NCBI RefSeq assembly: GCF_045037415.1
Contig: NZ_CP173438.1
Length of the DNA stretch: 64,000 bases
Source of the DNA: Escherichia coli
GTDB taxonomy: Bacteria; Pseudomonadota; Gammaproteobacteria; Enterobacterales; Enterobacteriaceae
Direction: 5' to 3' (one strand)
In this document: piece by piece, positions 15,601-64,000 of the stretch
Layout: every line of letters begins with the position of its first letter
Numbering within the stretch: the stretch's first letter is position 1
Translations under genes and position numbers: made by a program
Notes under the pieces: model-generated
The model's database searches: none
What the model was told of the DNA's origin: nothing
Seen by the model: only the letters and a program-made list of their open reading frames with translations

Positions 15601-16409
15601 TCAGTAAAGAAGTGAGCATCCGGGGTACGCGTCTGCGGCACGTTTGAACCCCAGGCGATGATGTAGCTGGAGTTGTACCAGTCAGCAGATTCCGGTACGT
15701 CAGTTTGCTCACCCCAGGTTTGCGGAGACGCAGGAGGCAGGTCGCAGTACCAGTCGTAGAAGCTTAAGCAAGTACCGCCAATCAGCGAGAGATAGCGCGC
15801 ACCCGATGCGTAAGAAACCATCGACATTGCCGGAATTGGCGAGAAGCCAGCGACACGGTCCGGGCCGTAATTTTTGATGGTGTAAACGTTAGATGCGGCG
15901 ATCAGTTCGTTCACTTCCTGCCAGGAAGAACGAACAAAACCACCGCGTCCACGCGCCTGCTTAAAGCTTTTCGCTTTATCGGCGTCTTCAATGATAGAAG
16001 CCCATGCCTCAACCGGATCGCTATGCAGCGCCTTCGCTTCACGCCACATTTTCATCAGGCGTTTGCGCATCATCGGGTATTTCAGGCGGTTAGCGCTGTA
16101 AAGATACCAGGAGTAGCTGGCACCGCGCGGGCAGCCGCGAGGTTCATGGTTTGGCAGGTCCGGGCGAGTACGCGGATAGTCAGTCTGCTGGGTTTCCCAG
16201 GTGACCAGACCGTTTTTGACGTAGATTTTCCAGCTGCAGGAGCCGGTGCAGTTTACCCCGTGGGTAGAGCGGACGATTTTGTCATGCTGCCAACGCTGGC
16301 GATATCCATCCTCCCAGTCACGGTTGGTATTGAGAAGCTGGCCATGCCCATCGGCAAAGGTTTCACCCTTCTGTTTGAAGTAGCGAAACCGGTCCAGGAA
16401 TTTACTCAT
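12666..16409 (-). CDS. narG: respiratory nitrate reductase 1 alpha subunit (molybdoenzyme)
   Basis: 1247-aa ORF starting MSKFLDRFRYFKQKGETFADGHGQ with an N-terminal Cys/His Fe-S motif; canonical NarG. Confidence 0.95.
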   Translation of the reverse strand: MSKFLDRFRYFKQKGETFADGHGQLLNTNRDWEDGYRQRWQHDKIVRSTHGVNCTGSCSWKIYVKNGLVTWETQQTDYPRTRPDLPNHEPRGCPRGASYSWYLYSANRLKYPMMRKRLMKMWREAKALHSDPVEAWASIIEDADKAKSFKQARGRGGFVRSSWQEVNELIAASNVYTIKNYGPDRVAGFSPIPAMSMVSYASGARYLSLIGGTCLSFYDWYCDLPPASPQTWGEQTDVPESADWYNSSYIIAWGSNVPQTRTPDAHFFTEVRYKGTKTVAVTPDYAEIAKLCDLWLAPKQGTDAAMALAMGHVMLREFHLDNPSQYFTDYVRRYTDMPMLVMLEERDGYYAAGRMLRAADLVDALGQENNPEWKTVAFNTNGEMVAPNGSIGFRWGEKGKWNLEQRDGKTGEETELQLSLLGSQDEIAEVGFPYFGGDGTEHFNKVELENVLLHKLPVKRLQLADGSTALVTTVYDLTLANYGLERGLNDVNCATSYDDVKAYTPAWAEQITGVSRSQIIRIAREFADNADKTHGRSMIIVGAGLNHWYHLDMNYRGLINMLIFCGCVGQSGGGWAHYVGQEKLRPQTGWQPLAFALDWQRPARHMNSTSYFYNHSSQWRYETVTAEELLSPMADKSRYTGHLIDFNVRAERMGWLPSAPQLGTNPLTIAREAEKAGMNPVDYTVKSLKEGSIRFAAEQPENGKNHPRNLFIWRSNLLGSSGKGHEFMLKYLLGTEHGIQGKDLGQQGGVKPEEVDWQDNGLEGKLDLVVTLDFRLSSTCLYSDIILPTATWYEKDDMNTSDMHPFIHPLSAAVDPAWEAKSDWEIYKAIAKKFSEVCVGHLGKETDIVTLPIQHDSAAELAQPLDVKDWKKGECDLIPGKTAPHIMVVERDYPATYERFTSIGPLMEKIGNGGKGIAWNTQSEMDLLRKLNYTKAEGPAKGQPMLNTAIDAAEMILTLAPETNGQVAVKAWAALSEFTGRDHTHLALNKEDEKIRFRDIQAQPRKIISSPTWSGLEDEHVSYNAGYTNVHELIPWRTLSGRQQLYQDHQWMRDFGESLLVYRPPIDTRSVKEVMGQKSNGNPEKALNFLTPHQKWGIHSTYSDNLLMLTLGRGGPVVWLSEADAKELGIADNDWIEVFNSNGALTARAVVSQRVPAGMTMMYHAQERIVNLPGSEITQQRGGIHNSVTRITPKPTHMIGGYAHLAYGFNYYGTVGSNRDEFVVVRKMKNIDWLDGEGNDQVQESVK

Positions 16410-16500
16410 CGGTTTTCTCCTGTGGGAGCCTGTCGGCCCTCTGATAAATCGACATTGCTAATGTTTAAGGGCAAGGTAACGCTCTGAAACAGCGTGGGAA

Positions 16501-16514
16501 TTGATAACGATCAA
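16501..16514. promoter_or_regulatory. FNR consensus box (TTGATAACGATCAA) in the narG promoter
   Basis: Perfect TTGAT-N4-ATCAA palindrome centred about 98 bp upstream of the narG ATG, consistent with a class II FNR site at -41.5. Confidence 0.65.
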
Positions 16515-16801
16515 GAGTGATGGGGATGAAAAATAAAGTAAATTCCTGGAATACCCCTTTAGGATAATTAACATTTATAGCATAACAGACTGTAAATTAA
16601 GACGTTTTACACCTGTGGTTATTTAAACCATTAAGATTTTTATGCAGATGGGTATTAAGGAGTATTCCCCATGGGTAACATATTAATGACTCTTAATGAA
16701 ATCCAGCGAAATAAGCCATACAACATTAGTATGTTGTAACTAAATGACGCATAAAAAAAGCGCGACATCATGCCGCGCAAAGGATAATCAAATATTACGA
16801 T

Positions 16802-18193
16802 TTATTTTTTAGAATGCCGACCATATACCGCCCAGGTAATCACCACGCAGGCGATATAGAAAATCAAAAATACTTTCATTGCGCCGACTGGCGAACCCGT
16901 TAATGCCAGCGAGCTACCAAACGCTTTCGGGATAAAGAAGCCACCAATCGCGCCAATCGCAGAGATGAAACCCAGCGCCGCCGCCGTGTCGGTTGCCGCT
17001 TCACGCATCGCACGTTCGTCAGAACCCCCTTCTGCTTTCACGCGATCCATTGTCAGTTTACGGAAGATCACGGAAATCATCTGGAAAGTGGAACCACTAC
17101 CCAGCCCAGCGGTCAGGAACAGCGCAAGGAAGACTGCGAAGAACGCCATGAAGCTTCCGCCCTGTCCGTCAGTCGGTAAGGTCAGGAACAGCAGGCCGCT
17201 GAAAATCGCCATCAGGATAAAGTTCACCAGCGTGACACGAGTTCCGCCCAGACGGTCAGATAATGCACCACCTGCAGAACGCGCCAGCGCACCAATAAAC
17301 GGCCCGAAGAAAGCGTATTGCAGAATCTGAACATCCGGGAACTGCGTTTTTGACAGCATCGCAAAGCCCGCGGAGAAGCCGATGAAGGAGCCGAAGGTTG
17401 CCAGATACAGAAGGCTCATAATCCACAGATGACCCCGTTTGAGTACCGGCAACTGCTCCTTGATGGAGGCTTTCGAGGTAGCAAGATCGTTCATGCCAAA
17501 CCACGCCGCAATGGTGAAGATGGCAAGGAACGGCACCCATATCCAGGACGCATTCGCCAGATACAGCTCAGTCCCATCCGGCTGTTTGACGCCCTGGCTA
17601 CCAAATACTGCGAAAATCGACAGTGATACCACCAGCGGAGCAACCAACTGCATGACGCTGACGCCCATGTTGCCCAGACCACCATTCAGACCCAGCGCGC
17701 CACCCTGCTTCTGTTTCGGAAAGAAGAAGCTGATGTTTGCCATACTGGATGCGAAGTTCGCGCCAGCAAAGCCGCACAGCAGAGAAATGATGATGAAGAC
17801 GCTATAAGGCGTGGAGGTATCCTGCACGGCAAAACCCAGCCAGACGCAAGGAATAATCAGAATACCGGTGCTGAACGCCGTCCAGCGACGACCACCAAAG
17901 ATAGGAACCATAAAGGAGTATGGAACACGTAATAACGCGCCAGAAACCGAAGGCAGCGCAGTCAACATAAATAGCTGATCGGTCGTAAAATTAAAACCGA
18001 CTTTCGGTAAGTTCACCGCAACAGCGCTGAACAACATCCATACGCAAAACGCCAGCAACAGACAGGGAACGGAAATCCACAGGTTGCGGCTGGCAATACG
18101 TTGACCGCGTTGTTGCCAGAACGCAGGATCTTCCGGTCGCCAATCTGTAATGACAGCTCCAGTAGCCCTTTCGGGGGCGGATGAGTGACTCAT
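16802..18193 (-). CDS. narK: nitrate/nitrite transporter (MFS)
   Basis: ORF 16802..18199; start set at the ATG giving MSHSSAPERATGAV; 12-TM MFS protein in the expected position. Confidence 0.9.
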   Translation of the reverse strand: MSHSSAPERATGAVITDWRPEDPAFWQQRGQRIASRNLWISVPCLLLAFCVWMLFSAVAVNLPKVGFNFTTDQLFMLTALPSVSGALLRVPYSFMVPIFGGRRWTAFSTGILIIPCVWLGFAVQDTSTPYSVFIIISLLCGFAGANFASSMANISFFFPKQKQGGALGLNGGLGNMGVSVMQLVAPLVVSLSIFAVFGSQGVKQPDGTELYLANASWIWVPFLAIFTIAAWFGMNDLATSKASIKEQLPVLKRGHLWIMSLLYLATFGSFIGFSAGFAMLSKTQFPDVQILQYAFFGPFIGALARSAGGALSDRLGGTRVTLVNFILMAIFSGLLFLTLPTDGQGGSFMAFFAVFLALFLTAGLGSGSTFQMISVIFRKLTMDRVKAEGGSDERAMREAATDTAAALGFISAIGAIGGFFIPKAFGSSLALTGSPVGAMKVFLIFYIACVVITWAVYGRHSKK

Positions 18194-58662: not shown

Positions 58663-59022
58663 ATGAACAGAAAACTGTTGGCCTTATTCATGGCAGCCAT
58701 AACGCTACCAGTCGCAGCAGCGCAGTACGTAAAACCCGGAGCGGTTCTAACCCTGCATCCGGGACAGAATAACGCTGAATTCAACATTAATGCCTCAACG
58801 GGGGATGGTTCGGGCGTATGCAATATGGAGGGGACAGCACAGCAAATAGCTGCCGGAGAAAGTCAGAAGCGTCGCTGGGTCTGGAATGACAATGCCAGCG
58901 AGTGTGTTGCAGTAATTAGTGAACTGACAAACGGTAAGGCCAGCATTATGACACGTGGTTGCGAGGGATACTGCGGGGCTTCTGCGGCAGGCGCAATGGA
59001 TGGTCTATTTAATAAGAAATAA
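58663..59022 (+). CDS. hypothetical secreted Cys-containing protein
   Basis: 119-aa ORF with signal peptide MNRKLLALFMAAITLPVAAAQ and four Cys. Confidence 0.5.
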   Translation: MNRKLLALFMAAITLPVAAAQYVKPGAVLTLHPGQNNAEFNINASTGDGSGVCNMEGTAQQIAAGESQKRRWVWNDNASECVAVISELTNGKASIMTRGCEGYCGASAAGAMDGLFNKK

Positions 59023-59052: not shown

Positions 59053-59388
59053 ATGAAAAGAGCAATACTTCTGGTATTAATTGCTGCTGGTTTGCTGGCT
59101 GGCTGCGGCGAGAAAACGCCAAAATGTAGTAGTGATGATGCAAAAAATCTGGTCGGGGATATTGCAAGAAAGACAATCGAGAAAGGGATGAAACTGGATA
59201 AGGATGTGCGTATTTCTGTAGAAAATGTCAGAACAATTAGCCATGAATCAGATCTGGATGTTTATCAGTGCGCTGCTGATTTAACGTTTACAAAACCAGA
59301 TTTGCAAAATTCTCTACCAATCACCTACCGGATTCAGAAAACTGATGAGGGTAAAGGTCCGTTTTATATAAACGTAACAGGTTTATAA
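59053..59388 (+). CDS. hypothetical lipoprotein
   Basis: 111-aa ORF with lipobox MKRAILLVLIAAGLLAGCGEK. Confidence 0.55.
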   Translation: MKRAILLVLIAAGLLAGCGEKTPKCSSDDAKNLVGDIARKTIEKGMKLDKDVRISVENVRTISHESDLDVYQCAADLTFTKPDLQNSLPITYRIQKTDEGKGPFYINVTGL

Positions 59389-59700: not shown

Positions 59701-60267
59701 TCACTGTGTTTACTTTACCGACAGACTGGGATACAAAAACGTCAAACACCTTCTCAATCAGTCTTATACCGTAAGCAATGCCGGGTGTGTCGGGCTCTGA
59801 GGGTTGATTAATTCCACAGGCATATGAAGACTAAATCCTACCATCCCCATACCTGCTGAGCCGCTCCGTTGAACATCTTTATCGCCTTGCTGTGGGTGCC
59901 AATCACGGCTATCCCCGCCCGTCTTGTAGGTTGGGGCTCACCAAATACGATGCCACTGGGAAGCTCTTTCAGTGTCACGTAATGCCATTTATAGCCCAGA
60001 TATGACCTGCTACTGAGCTAACTACATTGATTTGCCTAAATCCTGGGGCCTCTAAAGCGTCAGCGCCGCGCAGCAGTATAGGCAAGCCACTTTTAACGGG
60101 TTTTATCCGGCTCCCTGAGGCTGCTTTCAGAAAAGGCGTGTAATCGGATAACTACAGCAACCTAGGGAAGTATGTGCTTGTAGAATGAATGCAGTGGTAA
60201 TCAAGACTACCGCTTTTACAAACCCCACCAATCGTATAACTGCGATTTGATGGCTACCCATCCTAAG

Positions 60268-62154
60268 TTACTTCATTAAAATAGCACTATTTTTTGAGGG
60301 CAGCGGGATAAGGGCTCTGCGCTCTCCATCCATTGCATGTTCACCCGCAAACCATTCGTAATGAACTTTATTCATGATTGATACCGGCGGTTCTTTATTC
60401 TCTATAACTATGATTTGTAAGGTATCAGGCAATTGGGTCAGTGAATGCCAGAAGCCTTCCTCAATACCAGCCGATATGGGTTCATCGAAGCCCGATACCG
60501 TAGCAGCGGCTTTCTTCTTATAACTTGTCAGCGGTGAATCAATCACGACTAGCCCAGGATGCGGGTATCCTTTTTTAATACAATATTTTAGTAATCCAAT
60601 GATGAAAGCTGAATAAAGAATGGCACGAACACCTTTACCGTGAGACTGCCGAGGTTGTCCATCAACAATGATGTCATACTCTTTTTCATTAAATGAAACG
60701 TCAGGCTCGGCACCCCATTTCCAGTCTTTTAAAACAGTTTCAATTTCTCTACAAAGTTCGGCCAGCGTACGGGTAGATAATCCCTCCCATTCGAGCCGTG
60801 GTTGACTGCTCTTTTCCAGCAGTATTTCTATATCCTTTTGATGTTTTAGTAACTCAAACCATCTCTGTCGATCATTCAACTCAGAGTCTCTTTCAGCTCG
60901 CTGCTCAATAGCTAAATCTAGGCTTTCTTTGGAAAGTGTAAGAAGAGGCTCAAAAGTATATTTGATCTGGTTCTTCATTCCATCCAAGCTTTCTTTTGAC
61001 TTATATCTGTCTATATTCAGAGCTTCTTTTCTTCGGTCAAGATCACTCATCGCTTTTTGCAGGCCTGCAAGGTATCCATGAATTTTTGCAGCTTCAGCTA
61101 AAGAAGAACGTCGGACTTCATTACTGTTCATTAATTTTTTAGCGTTCTCACTGTGTGGATGTAGTAAATTTTGTCCACAAAGGGAACAAGGAACTTCCTG
61201 AAGTGAAGTGAAATAGTGAGAACCTTCGGAAATAAAATCCAACCGCTTCAGGTCGGAATGGTAACGTTCTTCTAATAGGCTATATCTCGATTGAATTTCA
61301 GATACTCCCATTAACTGAGATTCTATTTTTAACGTTAACGCTGTCTCCATTTTTATTCCCTCGAGCAAGTCAGAAATAGCGGCTGCAGCCCTCTCAACTT
61401 CATCAATTGCTTGTGCAATCAATTGATCTGATAAATCATCTGCTGAGCTCGTTAATGGAAACTTGGGCGAACAAATTGAGAAACGTTCATCAAGTGGTCG
61501 AATCAAATCCTGGATGAATTCAAGCTTCGCCATCAACCTCGCTTTTACAATTTCAGGCTTTTCCTCTACGGTAACACCACCATCATCGTGCCCGGTAAGG
61601 ATGTATGAAAACATGCGTTTTCGAGCAGTGTCGTCATAACCGGAACGTCCCGTTACTGGCGAGTATTCGTCGATAATGGATACTTCATCTACCAAAAATA
61701 TAGGAGCGAGCGTTCGAATCGAGAAACGTTGCGTTTCGCCACGAGCATTCTTGCGAAGCTTCGCCTCTTTGATCCCCGCAAAAGGGAAAAGTATGGACGT
61801 CACATCTGGCCCCTTACTCGTTCCTTTACGCACAGGAGCAATTATTTTACCTTCTCCATGGATGTCTTGAATAGCGACATCATGTGCCTCTAATTTCCCC
61901 CCCTCAAGACCGCGCTTGAGCGTTAACACCCCCCCTTCATCATTTTCGAATTCAACATAAAGATGGGTGTAATCGGTGGCCTCTTTAAGCTTTTTTTTGA
62001 GTTTTTCGGCACCAAGAATGTAGTCAAGACAACTCACAAGGTAACTTTTCCCAGTATCAGATTCCCCTGCTAGAATATTCGCACCCTTATAGAAATCAAC
62101 ATAAGCGTCTTGAACGCTGTTTCCGCGCAATAGTATTTTTCTTATACGAAGCAT
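60268..62154 (-). CDS. Rad50/SMC-like ABC ATPase with coiled coil and central CxxC hook (LmuB/DdmC-like)
   Basis: ORF 60268..62175; start set at the ATG at 62154 (MLRIRKILLRG); N-terminal Walker A GESDTGKSYL, long helical middle with CSLCGQ near the midpoint, C-terminal Walker B/D-loop (GLVVIDSPLTSY); start lies 1 nt after the upstream gene's stop. Confidence 0.75.
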   Translation of the reverse strand: MLRIRKILLRGNSVQDAYVDFYKGANILAGESDTGKSYLVSCLDYILGAEKLKKKLKEATDYTHLYVEFENDEGGVLTLKRGLEGGKLEAHDVAIQDIHGEGKIIAPVRKGTSKGPDVTSILFPFAGIKEAKLRKNARGETQRFSIRTLAPIFLVDEVSIIDEYSPVTGRSGYDDTARKRMFSYILTGHDDGGVTVEEKPEIVKARLMAKLEFIQDLIRPLDERFSICSPKFPLTSSADDLSDQLIAQAIDEVERAAAAISDLLEGIKMETALTLKIESQLMGVSEIQSRYSLLEERYHSDLKRLDFISEGSHYFTSLQEVPCSLCGQNLLHPHSENAKKLMNSNEVRRSSLAEAAKIHGYLAGLQKAMSDLDRRKEALNIDRYKSKESLDGMKNQIKYTFEPLLTLSKESLDLAIEQRAERDSELNDRQRWFELLKHQKDIEILLEKSSQPRLEWEGLSTRTLAELCREIETVLKDWKWGAEPDVSFNEKEYDIIVDGQPRQSHGKGVRAILYSAFIIGLLKYCIKKGYPHPGLVVIDSPLTSYKKKAAATVSGFDEPISAGIEEGFWHSLTQLPDTLQIIVIENKEPPVSIMNKVHYEWFAGEHAMDGERRALIPLPSKNSAILMK

Positions 62155-62155
62155 G

Positions 62156-62671
62156 TTATAAATCCAGTAGATCAATTGCGGTCAATCGGTCGAATTCAGA
62201 ACCCCATTGCCCCACATTCTGAGATATATATGAAGCAAGTTCTTCATCCGTATATTCATAGAATTGCTTTGTGACCCAAGAGGCACGTTCTGCGAGCTCT
62301 TTTGAATACTGTGACATCAAAAGCCGCACAAACCTTCCTGTTAAATTGGTAGCCTGATACAAAATACCTTCGGCAGCAAAGACAACCTTAATCAATTCTC
62401 TTGATAGCATTAAATGCAGCCCTGCCTGAATTGCGCTTCGCTTAACAAGAAGCTCTGCTCCCCGGTGAGGAACTGCTGGATGAAGGCTTTTAGGCCCCCT
62501 AGGTACGTCACTGGTATGCACAAGAAGATAGTCATACGAAACTATCCTTTGTAGGTCCATTGCTACATTGTCCGCTGCATCCAATATGAACAGAGCACGA
62601 AATCCATACTCCAGCGGAGTGTTAAAAGGTCTCTGCTCAAAGTTTCCTTCAAATACTTGCATTTCGCTCAT
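62156..62671 (-). CDS. small middle-component protein (LmuC/DdmB-like)
   Basis: ORF 62156..62683 opens with a non-ATG codon; the ATG at 62671 (MSEMQVFEG) overlaps the upstream stop as ATGA; about 171 aa, no recognisable catalytic motif. Confidence 0.6.
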   Translation of the reverse strand: MSEMQVFEGNFEQRPFNTPLEYGFRALFILDAADNVAMDLQRIVSYDYLLVHTSDVPRGPKSLHPAVPHRGAELLVKRSAIQAGLHLMLSRELIKVVFAAEGILYQATNLTGRFVRLLMSQYSKELAERASWVTKQFYEYTDEELASYISQNVGQWGSEFDRLTAIDLLDL

Positions 62672-63807
62672 GGATTGCACCAATTAATCAAGTTTGTATT
62701 GGCTAGTTGGTGGCATATACCTTCACGATCCTTATTCGTTACGTGAATGGCAAGTGGGTGCGCACCAAGTTGCAGGGTCTGAGCGGCCTTGACGGTATTT
62801 TTTAACCGAAGGAGTGGAGTCCCTGTCAGGTCAGAGGTGTAGTGATACAGACCATCATCAAACTCTACAAGTAAAGAATTAAAGAATTCTTGATTCGCCA
62901 TTTGGTCCCTAGCGAGTTCCTTTAGCCCTTCCGAGCAATAAAAAGTTATTCGGGACCGTTCAAAGAGTTTTACATGGCTGATACTTGATTGAAAATCAAC
63001 TAAATCTCGCACGTTGGTTTTGATATCAGCGCTGATAACTGAAAAGAGTTGTTCAATATATACAGTTTCAATGGGAGCCACAGATGATGGGGGCCTAGTT
63101 GGTGGATCCCGCTCAATTAATGGTGCGCCAAAGACCATAAGATGAAAAGAGGTTTTACTGTGTTCGGCAAGTATCTCAATAGGCTGTTTTGCATGAAAAA
63201 TACTAAAATCAAACTCTTTAATATATTTTTCAAGTTCAGGCGTCAGGTCAACACTATGTTTCGATGTAATTTGCTTTGAAAAAGTTGCCCACTCGGATAG
63301 CATTTTCTCTTTGAGTTTAGTTGGATCATCTAGGAGGTCTTGGAATGGCGATGTTACCCCTTTATGTGTAACAAAATGGTATTGTGTAGGTACTGTGTAG
63401 TCCTTGATGAAAGTATAATAGATAACTTTTGCAACTTCGATGCCTGCCTTAGGAAGGCCTAAATTCGCATCATAATGTTTGCATTGATATAAGTGCCATC
63501 TTCGAGGAACAGCATCAGATGGATCAAGCCATACAACAATATCTCTGCCTTTATCTCCTGCCCCGCCACGTTGTTGTACTTCGTTGACATATTGCTGACC
63601 AGCTAAGTATTCAGAGGCCCATTCGAGTGTAAACCTTTCAAATTCGGCGGCGCTAAACTGTGCCAGACGATCCAAGGGGGCTATTGGAAGCCCTACACCT
63701 AACCCAAGCAGCCGAGCGTTCGCACCCGGCCACGTTGTAGGAGCAGAAAGCGCGCCAAGCGTCGAACTTGAATTTTGTTTCATCTTCTCTACCACCACAA
63801 CCTCCAT
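62668..63807 (-). CDS. putative effector with N-terminal PD-(D/E)xK-like (Cap4/DUF4297-like) nuclease motif (LmuA/DdmA-like)
   Basis: 379-aa ORF; GDKGRDIVVWLDPSD...WHLYQCKHY fits a D...(E/Q)xK nuclease core; first gene of a 3-gene coupled operon; alternative start at the ATG at 63783. Confidence 0.6.
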   Translation of the reverse strand: MEVVVVEKMKQNSSSTLGALSAPTTWPGANARLLGLGVGLPIAPLDRLAQFSAAEFERFTLEWASEYLAGQQYVNEVQQRGGAGDKGRDIVVWLDPSDAVPRRWHLYQCKHYDANLGLPKAGIEVAKVIYYTFIKDYTVPTQYHFVTHKGVTSPFQDLLDDPTKLKEKMLSEWATFSKQITSKHSVDLTPELEKYIKEFDFSIFHAKQPIEILAEHSKTSFHLMVFGAPLIERDPPTRPPSSVAPIETVYIEQLFSVISADIKTNVRDLVDFQSSISHVKLFERSRITFYCSEGLKELARDQMANQEFFNSLLVEFDDGLYHYTSDLTGTPLLRLKNTVKAAQTLQLGAHPLAIHVTNKDREGICHQLANTNLINWCNP

Positions 63808-64000
63808 GGAGAAGTGATATTAAATCTTTAGTCTTTTAAAATTTTACAAAATCTAACACAGTGCGCCAGGAAAGTAATTGACTAAGGTTCCCCACACACA
63901 AGAGCAAATCTTAACCTTGCTACGGGACATAACTACTTCCGCCCCACCGGCTACCCAGTCATCGACAGTTTGGCAGCTCACTCCACTGTGCCGAGCATAA

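Follow-up and report, generated by a model that had tools for sequence, protein, structure and literature searches.

Closest described systems and the locus

The system closest to the locus reported here is SG108 of Escherichia coli O150:H5 SE15, named 'Lamassu-Mrr' and marked 'v' in the supplement of Millman et al. 2022 (10.1101/2022.05.11.491447). According to that paper, the 3.9-kb operon, under its native promoter, protects E. coli MG1655 against phage, and cultures carrying it and infected with phage SECphi27 survive at low MOI and collapse at high MOI, which is abortive infection. In all four active Lamassu systems described there, mutation of the LmuB ATPase site or of the effector domain, or deletion of lmuC, abolishes defence; the SG108 effector is annotated as 'Mrr nuclease'. 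The same source lists SG107 from Bacillus cereus 172560W, which resembles our locus in its Mrr LmuA of 374 aa (GDMGRD...YQCK), its wHTH LmuC of 164 aa and its LmuB of 626 aa with CSVCG. SG107 comes from a Firmicute, however, and carries an 'x' in place of the 'v' of the SE15 system; we read the 'x' as no defence detected in the assay of Millman et al. 2022. Structures have been solved for the Cap4-CTD7-MC3 systems Vibrio cholerae DdmABC and Salmonella enterica LmuACB (PDB 9hqu, 9hqx, 9hr5, 9ny5, 9nyg, 9nxx and 9uxh). These relatives share with our locus the gene order lmuA-lmuC-lmuB, abortive infection, a LmuB of the short form whose Walker B is deviant, matching folds, and an effector that joins a PD-(D/E)xK nuclease at its N-terminus to a helical domain at its C-terminus.

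In the window (the whole 64,000-nt stretch of E. coli DNA analysed here), the ORF listing places three minus-strand genes at 60268-63807 in the order lmuA-lmuC-lmuB, with the following features:

63808..64000, minus strand: 5' flank, putative native promoter (upstream part of the active SG108 clone)
62668..63807, minus strand: lmuA, effector (ORF of 379 aa from the first ATG; PADLOC LmuA)
63451..63663, minus strand: LmuA Mrr-type PD-(D/E)xK nuclease core, residues 49-119 (weak Pfam Mrr_cat; conserved E57, D85, D89, Q108-C-K110)
62680..63069, minus strand: LmuA C-terminal domain, ABC-3C CTD6, residues 247-376 (Pfam CTD6 PF20282, 2.4e-34)
62156..62671, minus strand: lmuC, middle component (171 aa; PADLOC LmuC; Pfam MC2)
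60268..62154, minus strand: lmuB, SMC/Rad50-like ABC ATPase of the 'short' Lamassu type (628 aa; PADLOC LmuB)
62044..62067, minus strand: LmuB Walker A, G30-E-S-D-T-G-K-S37 (alignment; translation check)
61177..61188, minus strand: LmuB C323-S-L-C326, candidate zinc hook (115-sequence alignment; AF2 model)
60535..60645, minus strand: LmuB head motifs, signature-like S504-H-G-K-G508 and Walker B L-V-V-I-D539-S540 (alignment)
60167..60267, minus strand: 3' flank in the functional 3,876-bp clone (clone end computed from the stated length)

lmuA ends and lmuC begins within a shared ATGA ('...aatccATGAgcgaa...'), and 1 nt separates the stop of lmuC from the start of lmuB ('...ttaTAAcATGctt...'), just as a preliminary description of this DNA had reported. 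The motifs named there (D...QxK in LmuA; Walker A, Walker B and CxxC in LmuB) are all present as well, their positions confirmed by translation. Each gene offers more than one start. For lmuA there are three candidates, ATG at 63807 (379 aa), GTG at 63795 (375 aa) and ATG at 63783 (371 aa, the RefSeq call); the GTG has GGAGG 5 nt upstream, and most LmuA homologues are about 375 aa long. The lmuC ORF (62156-62683, minus strand) encodes 175 aa when read from a TTG and 171 aa when read from the ATG at 62671. For the lmuB ORF (60268-62175, minus strand) the lengths are 635 aa with a TTG start and 628 aa with the ATG at 62154, RefSeq calling 628 aa and IMG 620 aa. A consensus scan gave no promoter-like site on the minus strand of 63808..64000, and no terminator-like site was called in 60167..60267.

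Comparison with SG108 showed identity wherever the two could be aligned. LmuA is identical to SG108 LmuA over 379/379 residues (Millman et al. 2022, supplementary file 11), as are all 168 listed residues of SG108 LmuC and 398 listed residues of SG108 LmuB (the supplement gives 399) to their counterparts in the window. The active SG108 clone starts at the equivalent of window position 64042, so that the window ends 42 nt short of it, and over the DNA in common there are no mismatches in 357 nt (the supplement gives 399 bases). Gene order and upstream region are the same, and the only differences lie in start-codon calls (LmuC 168 vs 171 aa, LmuB 620 vs 628 aa). Judged by sequence, then, the window operon is the same system as SG108, cloned and shown to be anti-phage in 2022. 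The preliminary description had taken it for a divergent member or relative of the Lamassu family; being identical to the validated SG108 in every comparable stretch, it is not divergent, and the finding is correct but already known. PADLOC, DefenseFinder and RefSeq already label the operon or its subtype (RefSeq calls lmuA and lmuC components of an ABC-three component system, and the DefenseFinder 'Lamassu-Mrr' subtype has been reported in another E. coli strain), leaving little new as a discovery.

Effector, middle component and family assignment

The profile search proposed in the preliminary description bore out its Lamassu assignment: PADLOC models match all three proteins essentially over their full length (LmuA, PDLC03852, 1.4e-105, residues 40-378; LmuC, PDLC03871, 4.1e-57; LmuB, PDLC03863, 3.8e-176, residues 1-618). 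Lamassu/ABC-3C organisation is seen in the SMC/Rad50-like LmuB, in the LmuA with an effector part and a CTD, and in the position of lmuC between lmuA and lmuB.

The LmuA effector is a Mrr-type PD-(D/E)xK nuclease and not Cap4/DUF4297, the type to which it had first been assigned. Pfam returned Mrr_cat, albeit as a weak match (E = 0.0021), and CTD6, with no match to Cap4/DUF4297 or CTD7. The core residues E57, D85, D89 and Q108-C-K110 (D85-K-G-R-D89 at 63541-63555, Q108-C-K110 at 63478-63486 by translation) are invariant in a 56-sequence alignment and at least 95% conserved among 120 sequences, giving the conserved D...(Q/E)xK of a Mrr-type effector that marks the Lamassu-Mrr subtype. Neither LmuA nor LmuC has a match in the PDB by sequence. 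An AF2 model of LmuA (pLDDT 85) has an N-terminal alpha/beta core and, at 245-370, the helices of an all-helical CTD; its Foldseek matches begin with solved LmuA chains, followed by MspJI, AspBHI, the Avs3 nuclease domain, Cap4 and FokI, with modest global scores (4.6e-4, TM about 0.26). Cap4 is thus only a distant PD-(D/E)xK neighbour by fold, and the nuclease fold predicted by the preliminary description is the one that emerged.

A Mrr-like catalytic core with the modification-dependent enzymes MspJI and AspBHI among its structural neighbours could also belong to a type IV, Mrr-like modification-dependent restriction system, in which the ATPase would be a McrBC-like motor or regulator and the cell would not be sacrificed, since phage DNA would be cut directly. 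We consider this very unlikely: LmuA showed no domain for reading DNA modification, its C-terminal part being CTD6, all three proteins match Lamassu models at full length, and the liquid-culture phenotype of the SG108 clone is abortive infection with collapse at high MOI.

For the C-terminal half of the effector, whose role the preliminary description had left open, an answer exists in the relatives, where the CTD docks onto LmuB/LmuC and drives oligomerisation; by analogy with these solved Cap4-type LmuA CTDs, we infer that CTD6 would likewise be a docking and oligomerisation domain. LmuC, first described as a small protein with no motif, turned out to be a clear member of Pfam MC2 (PF20288, 5.4e-54), and no match to MC3 was returned for it. 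Because Pfam gives Mrr_cat, CTD6 and MC2, the subfamily is Mrr-CTD6-MC2 and not DdmABC (Cap4-CTD7-MC3): the components of a DdmABC-type system (Cap4/DUF4297, CTD7, MC3, DUF3732), which are those of DdmABC and Salmonella LmuACB, were not found by Pfam. Of the original proposal of a Lamassu/DdmABC-type system, the Lamassu/ABC-3C part therefore stands (PADLOC on all three proteins, Pfam CTD6 and MC2, folds and RefSeq) and the DdmABC type falls.

The ATPase and its CxxC

Sequence similarity between LmuB and the solved LmuBs of DdmABC and Salmonella LmuACB is marginal (PDB chains named DUF3732; E about 0.08, in the P-loop region only). Pfam returned AAA_15, AAA_23 and SMC_N, all weakly, and the DUF3732 match that the preliminary description had suggested looking for was not obtained. 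The AF2 model (pLDDT 84.9) was more informative, showing a split head and long helices, and Foldseek placed it closest to solved LmuB chains (9uxh_F, 1.8e-18, then 9hqu, 9hqx and 9nyg).

The ATPase motifs are strongly conserved (the LmuB alignment holds 115 sequences and that of LmuA 120, the query counted in both). In Walker A, G30, S32, T34, G35 and K36 are present in 115/115 and D33 and S37 in 114/115, while position 31 is variable (E in 88/115). The signature-like SHGKG (60631-60645) and the Walker B LVVIDS (60535-60552), both placed by translation, have S504, G506, G508 and D539 in all 115 sequences and S540 in 111, and the hhhhD-S of Walker B fits the 'short Lamassu' form hhhhD[Q/S/T/E]. 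Since the named LmuB and LmuA motifs are invariant or at least 95% conserved in the 115 LmuB and 120 LmuA sequences, they are more than chance occurrences.

All 115 aligned LmuB sequences (115/115) have both C323 and C326, usually as C-P-L-C. In the AF2 monomer model, helices 236-317 and 344-448 flank loop 318-334, which contains the CSLC. This agrees with the CxxC described earlier in the middle of a long helical region and makes it a candidate zinc hook, placed as one of the Rad50 type would be, with coordination of zinc by four Cys of two protomers and dimerisation through the hook putative. PMC12663957 takes CxxC to be the motif of the LmuB zinc hook. The preliminary description had left open whether such a hook is real; for the Salmonella relative an answer exists, since the zinc hook of that LmuB is required for defence and a hook mutant abolishes it. 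V. cholerae LmuB, on the other hand, is without a zinc hook, whereas CxxC is invariant in the family of the window LmuB. The window operon thus represents a hook-bearing (CxxC) Mrr subfamily of Lamassu.

Rad50/SbcC, which works with Mre11/SbcD in complexes that recognise DNA ends, has the same layout as LmuB: an antiparallel coiled coil interrupts its ABC head and bears a CxxC at the apex. SbcCD has also been proposed as the ancestor of Lamassu. Together with the presence of Rad50 and Mre11-Rad50 structures among the Foldseek matches of LmuB, this could fit a module for housekeeping DNA repair (of the SbcCD, Rad50-Mre11 or RecN kind), its ATPase tethering or processing chromosomal breaks and its nuclease serving as an Mre11-like partner. 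At the same time, Rad50, SMC heads and Mre11-Rad50 rank below the LmuB chains in that search, the coiled coil of LmuB is much shorter, and its Walker B has D-S rather than D-E. Its partners are LmuC and LmuA, a predicted sequestered toxic effector, and not the Mre11 (SbcD) phosphoesterase. The operon is accessory: of 5,426 complete E. coli genomes, 510 (about 9%) carry it at 99% identity or more. It sits in an integrase-bearing island beside a retron, unlike the housekeeping Rad50/SbcC-Mre11/SbcD. Moreover, the SG108 clone, identical where comparable, defends against phage. A repair module is therefore, in our view, extremely improbable. A housekeeping RecN/SbcC identity is effectively refuted by the island context and by a score of 18.6 bits against the NCBIfam RecN model TIGR00634 (cut-off 407.85), and the grouping with SbcC/RecN that the preliminary description had named as evidence against itself did not appear.

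Proposed mechanism and native role

The best explanation, which we hold with high confidence, is that the operon is a short, type II Lamassu of the Mrr subtype, equal to SG108, with a mechanism extrapolated from its Cap4-type relatives. We know of no solved structure or biochemistry for the Mrr-CTD6-MC2 subfamily, and for that reason the stoichiometry, a trigger by DNA ends and a LmuA tetramer are extrapolations here. The source is cryo-EM and biochemistry of Cap4-type V. cholerae DdmABC and Salmonella LmuACB, where the LmuA CTD is sequestered, DNA ends are bound, and LmuA is released and then tetramerises. By this model, a hook-joined, folded-back LmuB dimer and one LmuC would hold a single LmuA by its CTD in the resting state, keeping its nuclease monomeric and inactive. 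The LmuB heads and LmuC would bind DNA ends, or similar aberrant DNA, arising from phage replication, and ATP-driven engagement of the heads would release LmuA. Freed LmuA would then oligomerise through its CTD, bringing Mrr nuclease domains together to form the active site, and the assembly would cut DNA without sequence specificity, killing or arresting the infected cell.

The ST131 island that carries the operon also encodes, directly upstream of it, a retron Ec67-family system, and a ST131-specific island with Lamassu and retron has already been described in a 2026 preprint. The near-identical validated abortive-infection system, carried by strains that include some labelled O25b:H4-ST131, is relevant to phage therapy of ST131. 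It is conceivable, although we think it rather doubtful, that Mrr-CTD6-MC2 is wired unlike the solved Cap4 systems (in its LmuA oligomer, its DNA signal, or a coupling to the Ec67-family retron), and that independent IS insertions in lmuB and lmuC record a cost in fitness or autoimmunity in the pandemic clone.

We also considered a main native role that is anti-plasmid or island-stabilising (DdmABC-like, or as an addiction module) rather than phage defence. We judge this unlikely: no plasmid assay on the Mrr subtype was found in the literature consulted, while phage defence is directly demonstrated, and such a role would add to the short, type II Lamassu-Mrr explanation rather than replace it. 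What speaks for it is that DdmABC eliminates plasmids and that plasmid-borne expression of several Cap4-type Lamassu systems is toxic. A Tn-seq preprint links the ST131-specific 'Lamassu and Retron' island to gut fitness and suggests that disrupted abortive-infection genes may be mildly toxic. The IS of the three disrupted copies examined interrupts either lmuB or lmuC, and the protein annotated for lmuA in these copies is the same as in the intact one.

Identity of the operon with the SG108 system

Our comparison showed that the lmuA-lmuC-lmuB operon (60268-63807) is a system that had already been described and validated by experiment. The preliminary description had read three minus-strand genes joined by ATGA and 1-nt junctions, and both the open reading frame list and the sequence bear this out: the stop codon of lmuA overlaps the next ATG in an ATGA, and a single base lies between the TAA of lmuC and the ATG of lmuB. 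The motifs that it named were likewise all recovered, at coordinates confirmed by translation.

Features of the operon (window positions; genes from the open reading frame list, motifs checked by translation)
62668-63807, minus strand: lmuA, 379 aa
62156-62683, minus strand: lmuC open reading frame; 171-aa product from the ATG overlapping the lmuA stop
60268-62175, minus strand: lmuB open reading frame; 628-aa ATPase from its ATG
63541-63555, minus strand: LmuA DKGRD
63478-63486, minus strand: LmuA QCK
62044-62067, minus strand: LmuB Walker A, GESDTGKS
61177-61188, minus strand: LmuB CSLC
60631-60645, minus strand: LmuB SHGKG
60535-60552, minus strand: LmuB Walker B, LVVIDS

In their expansion of the Lamassu family, Millman et al. 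2022 (bioRxiv 10.1101/2022.05.11.491447) tested a system of E. coli O150:H5 SE15, which the methods of that preprint name 'Lamassu-Mrr'. Its supplementary file 11 gives this system as SG108, 'Lamassu-Fam', marked 'v', with an insert of 3,876 bp, and the components are listed as 'Mrr nuclease LmuA', 'wHTH LmuC' and 'SMC LmuB'. Direct comparison of the supplement sequences with the window settled the identity: LmuA is identical at 379/379 residues, the listed 168-aa LmuC equals the window protein from residue 4 on, 398 listed residues of LmuB are identical, and the first 399 bases of the insert share a 357-base overlap with the window with 0 mismatches. As computed, the insert would run from 60167 to 64042 in window coordinates, and therefore only its first 42 bases are missing from the window. 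The operon had been taken for a divergent or uncharacterised relative of known systems, a view that has to be given up since it is the same as SG108 wherever the two were compared.

According to the same preprint, the Lamassu systems were expressed under native promoters, and all four active ones lost defence upon point mutation of the SMC ATPase site, mutation of the effector domain or deletion of lmuC. With phage SECphi27, the SE15 system protected the culture at low MOI and the culture collapsed at high MOI, indicating abortive infection. The phenotype and the need for all three components have thus been shown for the sequence of this operon by Millman et al. 2022, and the possibility, raised beforehand, that a cloned operon gives no protection is answered by the phage protection reported for the clone. 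A reading as type IV restriction was rejected on the culture phenotype, which is abortive infection.

Subfamily, conserved residues and predicted folds

On sequence, the operon has everything that can be tested for Lamassu / ABC-3C membership and for the Lamassu-Mrr subtype. The three proteins gave end-to-end matches to PADLOC profiles (LmuA to PDLC03852, 1.4e-105; LmuC to PDLC03871, 4.1e-57; LmuB to PDLC03863, 3.8e-176), and Pfam searches assigned ABC-3C CTD6 (2.4e-34) and, weakly, Mrr_cat (0.0021) to the effector and ABC-3C MC2 (5.4e-54) to LmuC, with weak P-loop matches only for the ATPase. These strong matches to the components support the proposed Lamassu / ABC-3C identity. The suggestion of a DdmABC-type system with a Cap4 effector does not hold: none of the three proteins had a Pfam match to Cap4/DUF4297, CTD7, MC3 or DUF3732, the features of the DdmABC subfamily, and LmuA combines Mrr_cat (weak) with CTD6. 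The operon would work like DdmABC, by analogy, but it falls in another branch, the Mrr-CTD6-MC2 subfamily.

PDB sequence searches gave no match for LmuA or LmuC; for LmuB the P-loop matches were marginal and non-significant, so fold comparison was needed. Run against the PDB, Foldseek placed solved LmuB chains at the top for the LmuB model (9uxh_F at 1.8e-18, then 9hqu, 9hqx and 9nyg), with Rad50 and SMC heads next. A housekeeping-repair ATPase of the SbcC/RecN kind had been the alternative to consider; it was rejected, because the RecN P-loop match, the only one that NCBIfam gave and a sub-threshold one, scored 18.6 bits vs a cut-off of 407.85, and because the protein groups with LmuB, whose chains rank above Rad50.

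Among 116 LmuB homologues, found mainly in Proteobacteria and down to 29% identity, C323 and C326 are invariant in a 115-sequence alignment, most commonly as C-P-L-C. The same alignment shows little or no variation at the Walker A glycines, K36 and S/T37, at the signature-like S504/G506/G508 or at the Walker B D539, and the D-S form of Walker B agrees with the short-Lamassu form hhhhD[Q/S/T/E] (PMC12663957). The AlphaFold2 model (mean pLDDT 84.9) puts the CxxC in a loop (318-334) between two long helices (236-317 and 344-448), as expected from the Rad50-like layout first described. In this model the CxxC occupies the position of a Rad50-type hook, making it a candidate zinc hook.

For LmuA, 503 homologues were found, with E57, D85, D89 and Q108-C109-K110 invariant in a 56-sequence alignment and at least 95% conserved across 120. 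In its model (pLDDT 85.0) the N-terminal domain is alpha/beta and the C-terminal one all-helical. Solved LmuA chains were again the best PDB matches (9nxx_D at 4.6e-4, 9hr5), with modest global scores, followed by the PD-(D/E)xK nucleases MspJI, AspBHI, the Avs3 nuclease domain, Cap4 and FokI, so that the nuclease fold anticipated for the first protein is seen in the model.

Proposed mode of action

The molecular steps are most likely those of Cap4-type relatives (Li et al., 10.1101/2025.03.14.643221; Haudiquet et al., PMC12663957), by analogy. At rest, one LmuC and a pair of folded LmuB subunits would grip a single LmuA by its C-terminal domain, close to the hook region. The LmuACB complex would bind DNA ends, and ATP-dependent head engagement would set LmuA free to form a CTD-mediated tetramer whose paired nuclease domains would cut DNA non-specifically. 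Defence by the Salmonella system requires the LmuB zinc hook (Li et al., 10.1101/2025.03.14.643221), a feature that V. cholerae LmuB no longer has (Haudiquet et al., PMC12663957).

Distribution, island context and flanks

Of 5,426 complete E. coli genomes, 510 carry the operon at ≥99% identity, every time on the chromosome; strains labelled O25b:H4-ST131 are among them. Evenly sampling 60 of these 510 genomes gave 54 uninterrupted copies, three with an IS, two with 1-2 bp indels splitting the annotated lmuB and one truncated. Three IS-broken loci carried ISEc52 in lmuB at window 61148-61155 (L002), IS1A in lmuB (L003) and ISEc52 in lmuC (L004), each with an annotated LmuA protein the same as in the intact copy. 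A 401-nt query found 501 of 506 uninterrupted, yet 12 top-ranked matches listed for the operon carry an IS. Junction mapping, a junction query showing the L002 insertion to be common to only four genomes, and the third locus L004 together indicate several different IS sites.

In strain SA186 the operon is found in an island flanked by ychF and dhaR (L005; window about 38500-64000), at the end nearest dhaR. The island also carries two tyrosine recombinases, radC, a DUF2787 gene, a DUF2339/DUF3999 pair and small HTH regulators, along with ISEc24 fragments split by a group II intron (ltrA) and two small reading frames (58663-59022 and 59053-59388) predicted to encode secreted proteins or lipoproteins. 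Ten neighbouring island proteins had no PADLOC match, and thus no further defence genes were seen among them. Next to lmuA on its upstream side, in the same orientation and just past the right end of the window (about 64042 onward), is a retron Ec67-family reverse transcriptase/endonuclease gene (16043-17800 in locus L001), followed by dhaR, so that Lamassu and retron stand side by side at the island edge. Rfam detected no msr/msd RNA in 3.4 kb around the retron gene. A 2026 preprint had already described 'Lamassu and Retron' on an island specific to ST131 and reported a fitness effect in gut colonisation.

A consensus promoter/terminator scan called nothing promoter-like on the minus strand of the lmuA 5' flank, nor did it call a terminator-like site downstream of lmuB. 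The same 5' flank contains a terminator-like hairpin (63853-63869, minus strand; CTGGCGCACTGTGTTAG then ATTTTGTAAA), which may be the terminator of the upstream retron gene, in which case the lmuA promoter would sit in the AT-rich 45 nt that separate the hairpin from the start codon. That start codon is itself uncertain (63781-63807), with ATG 63807 (used by IMG), GTG 63795 and ATG 63783 (used by RefSeq) all plausible. A GGAGG stands 5 nt ahead of the GTG, from which the product would be 375 aa long, as in most LmuA homologues; the conserved LmuA residues are unaffected by the choice.
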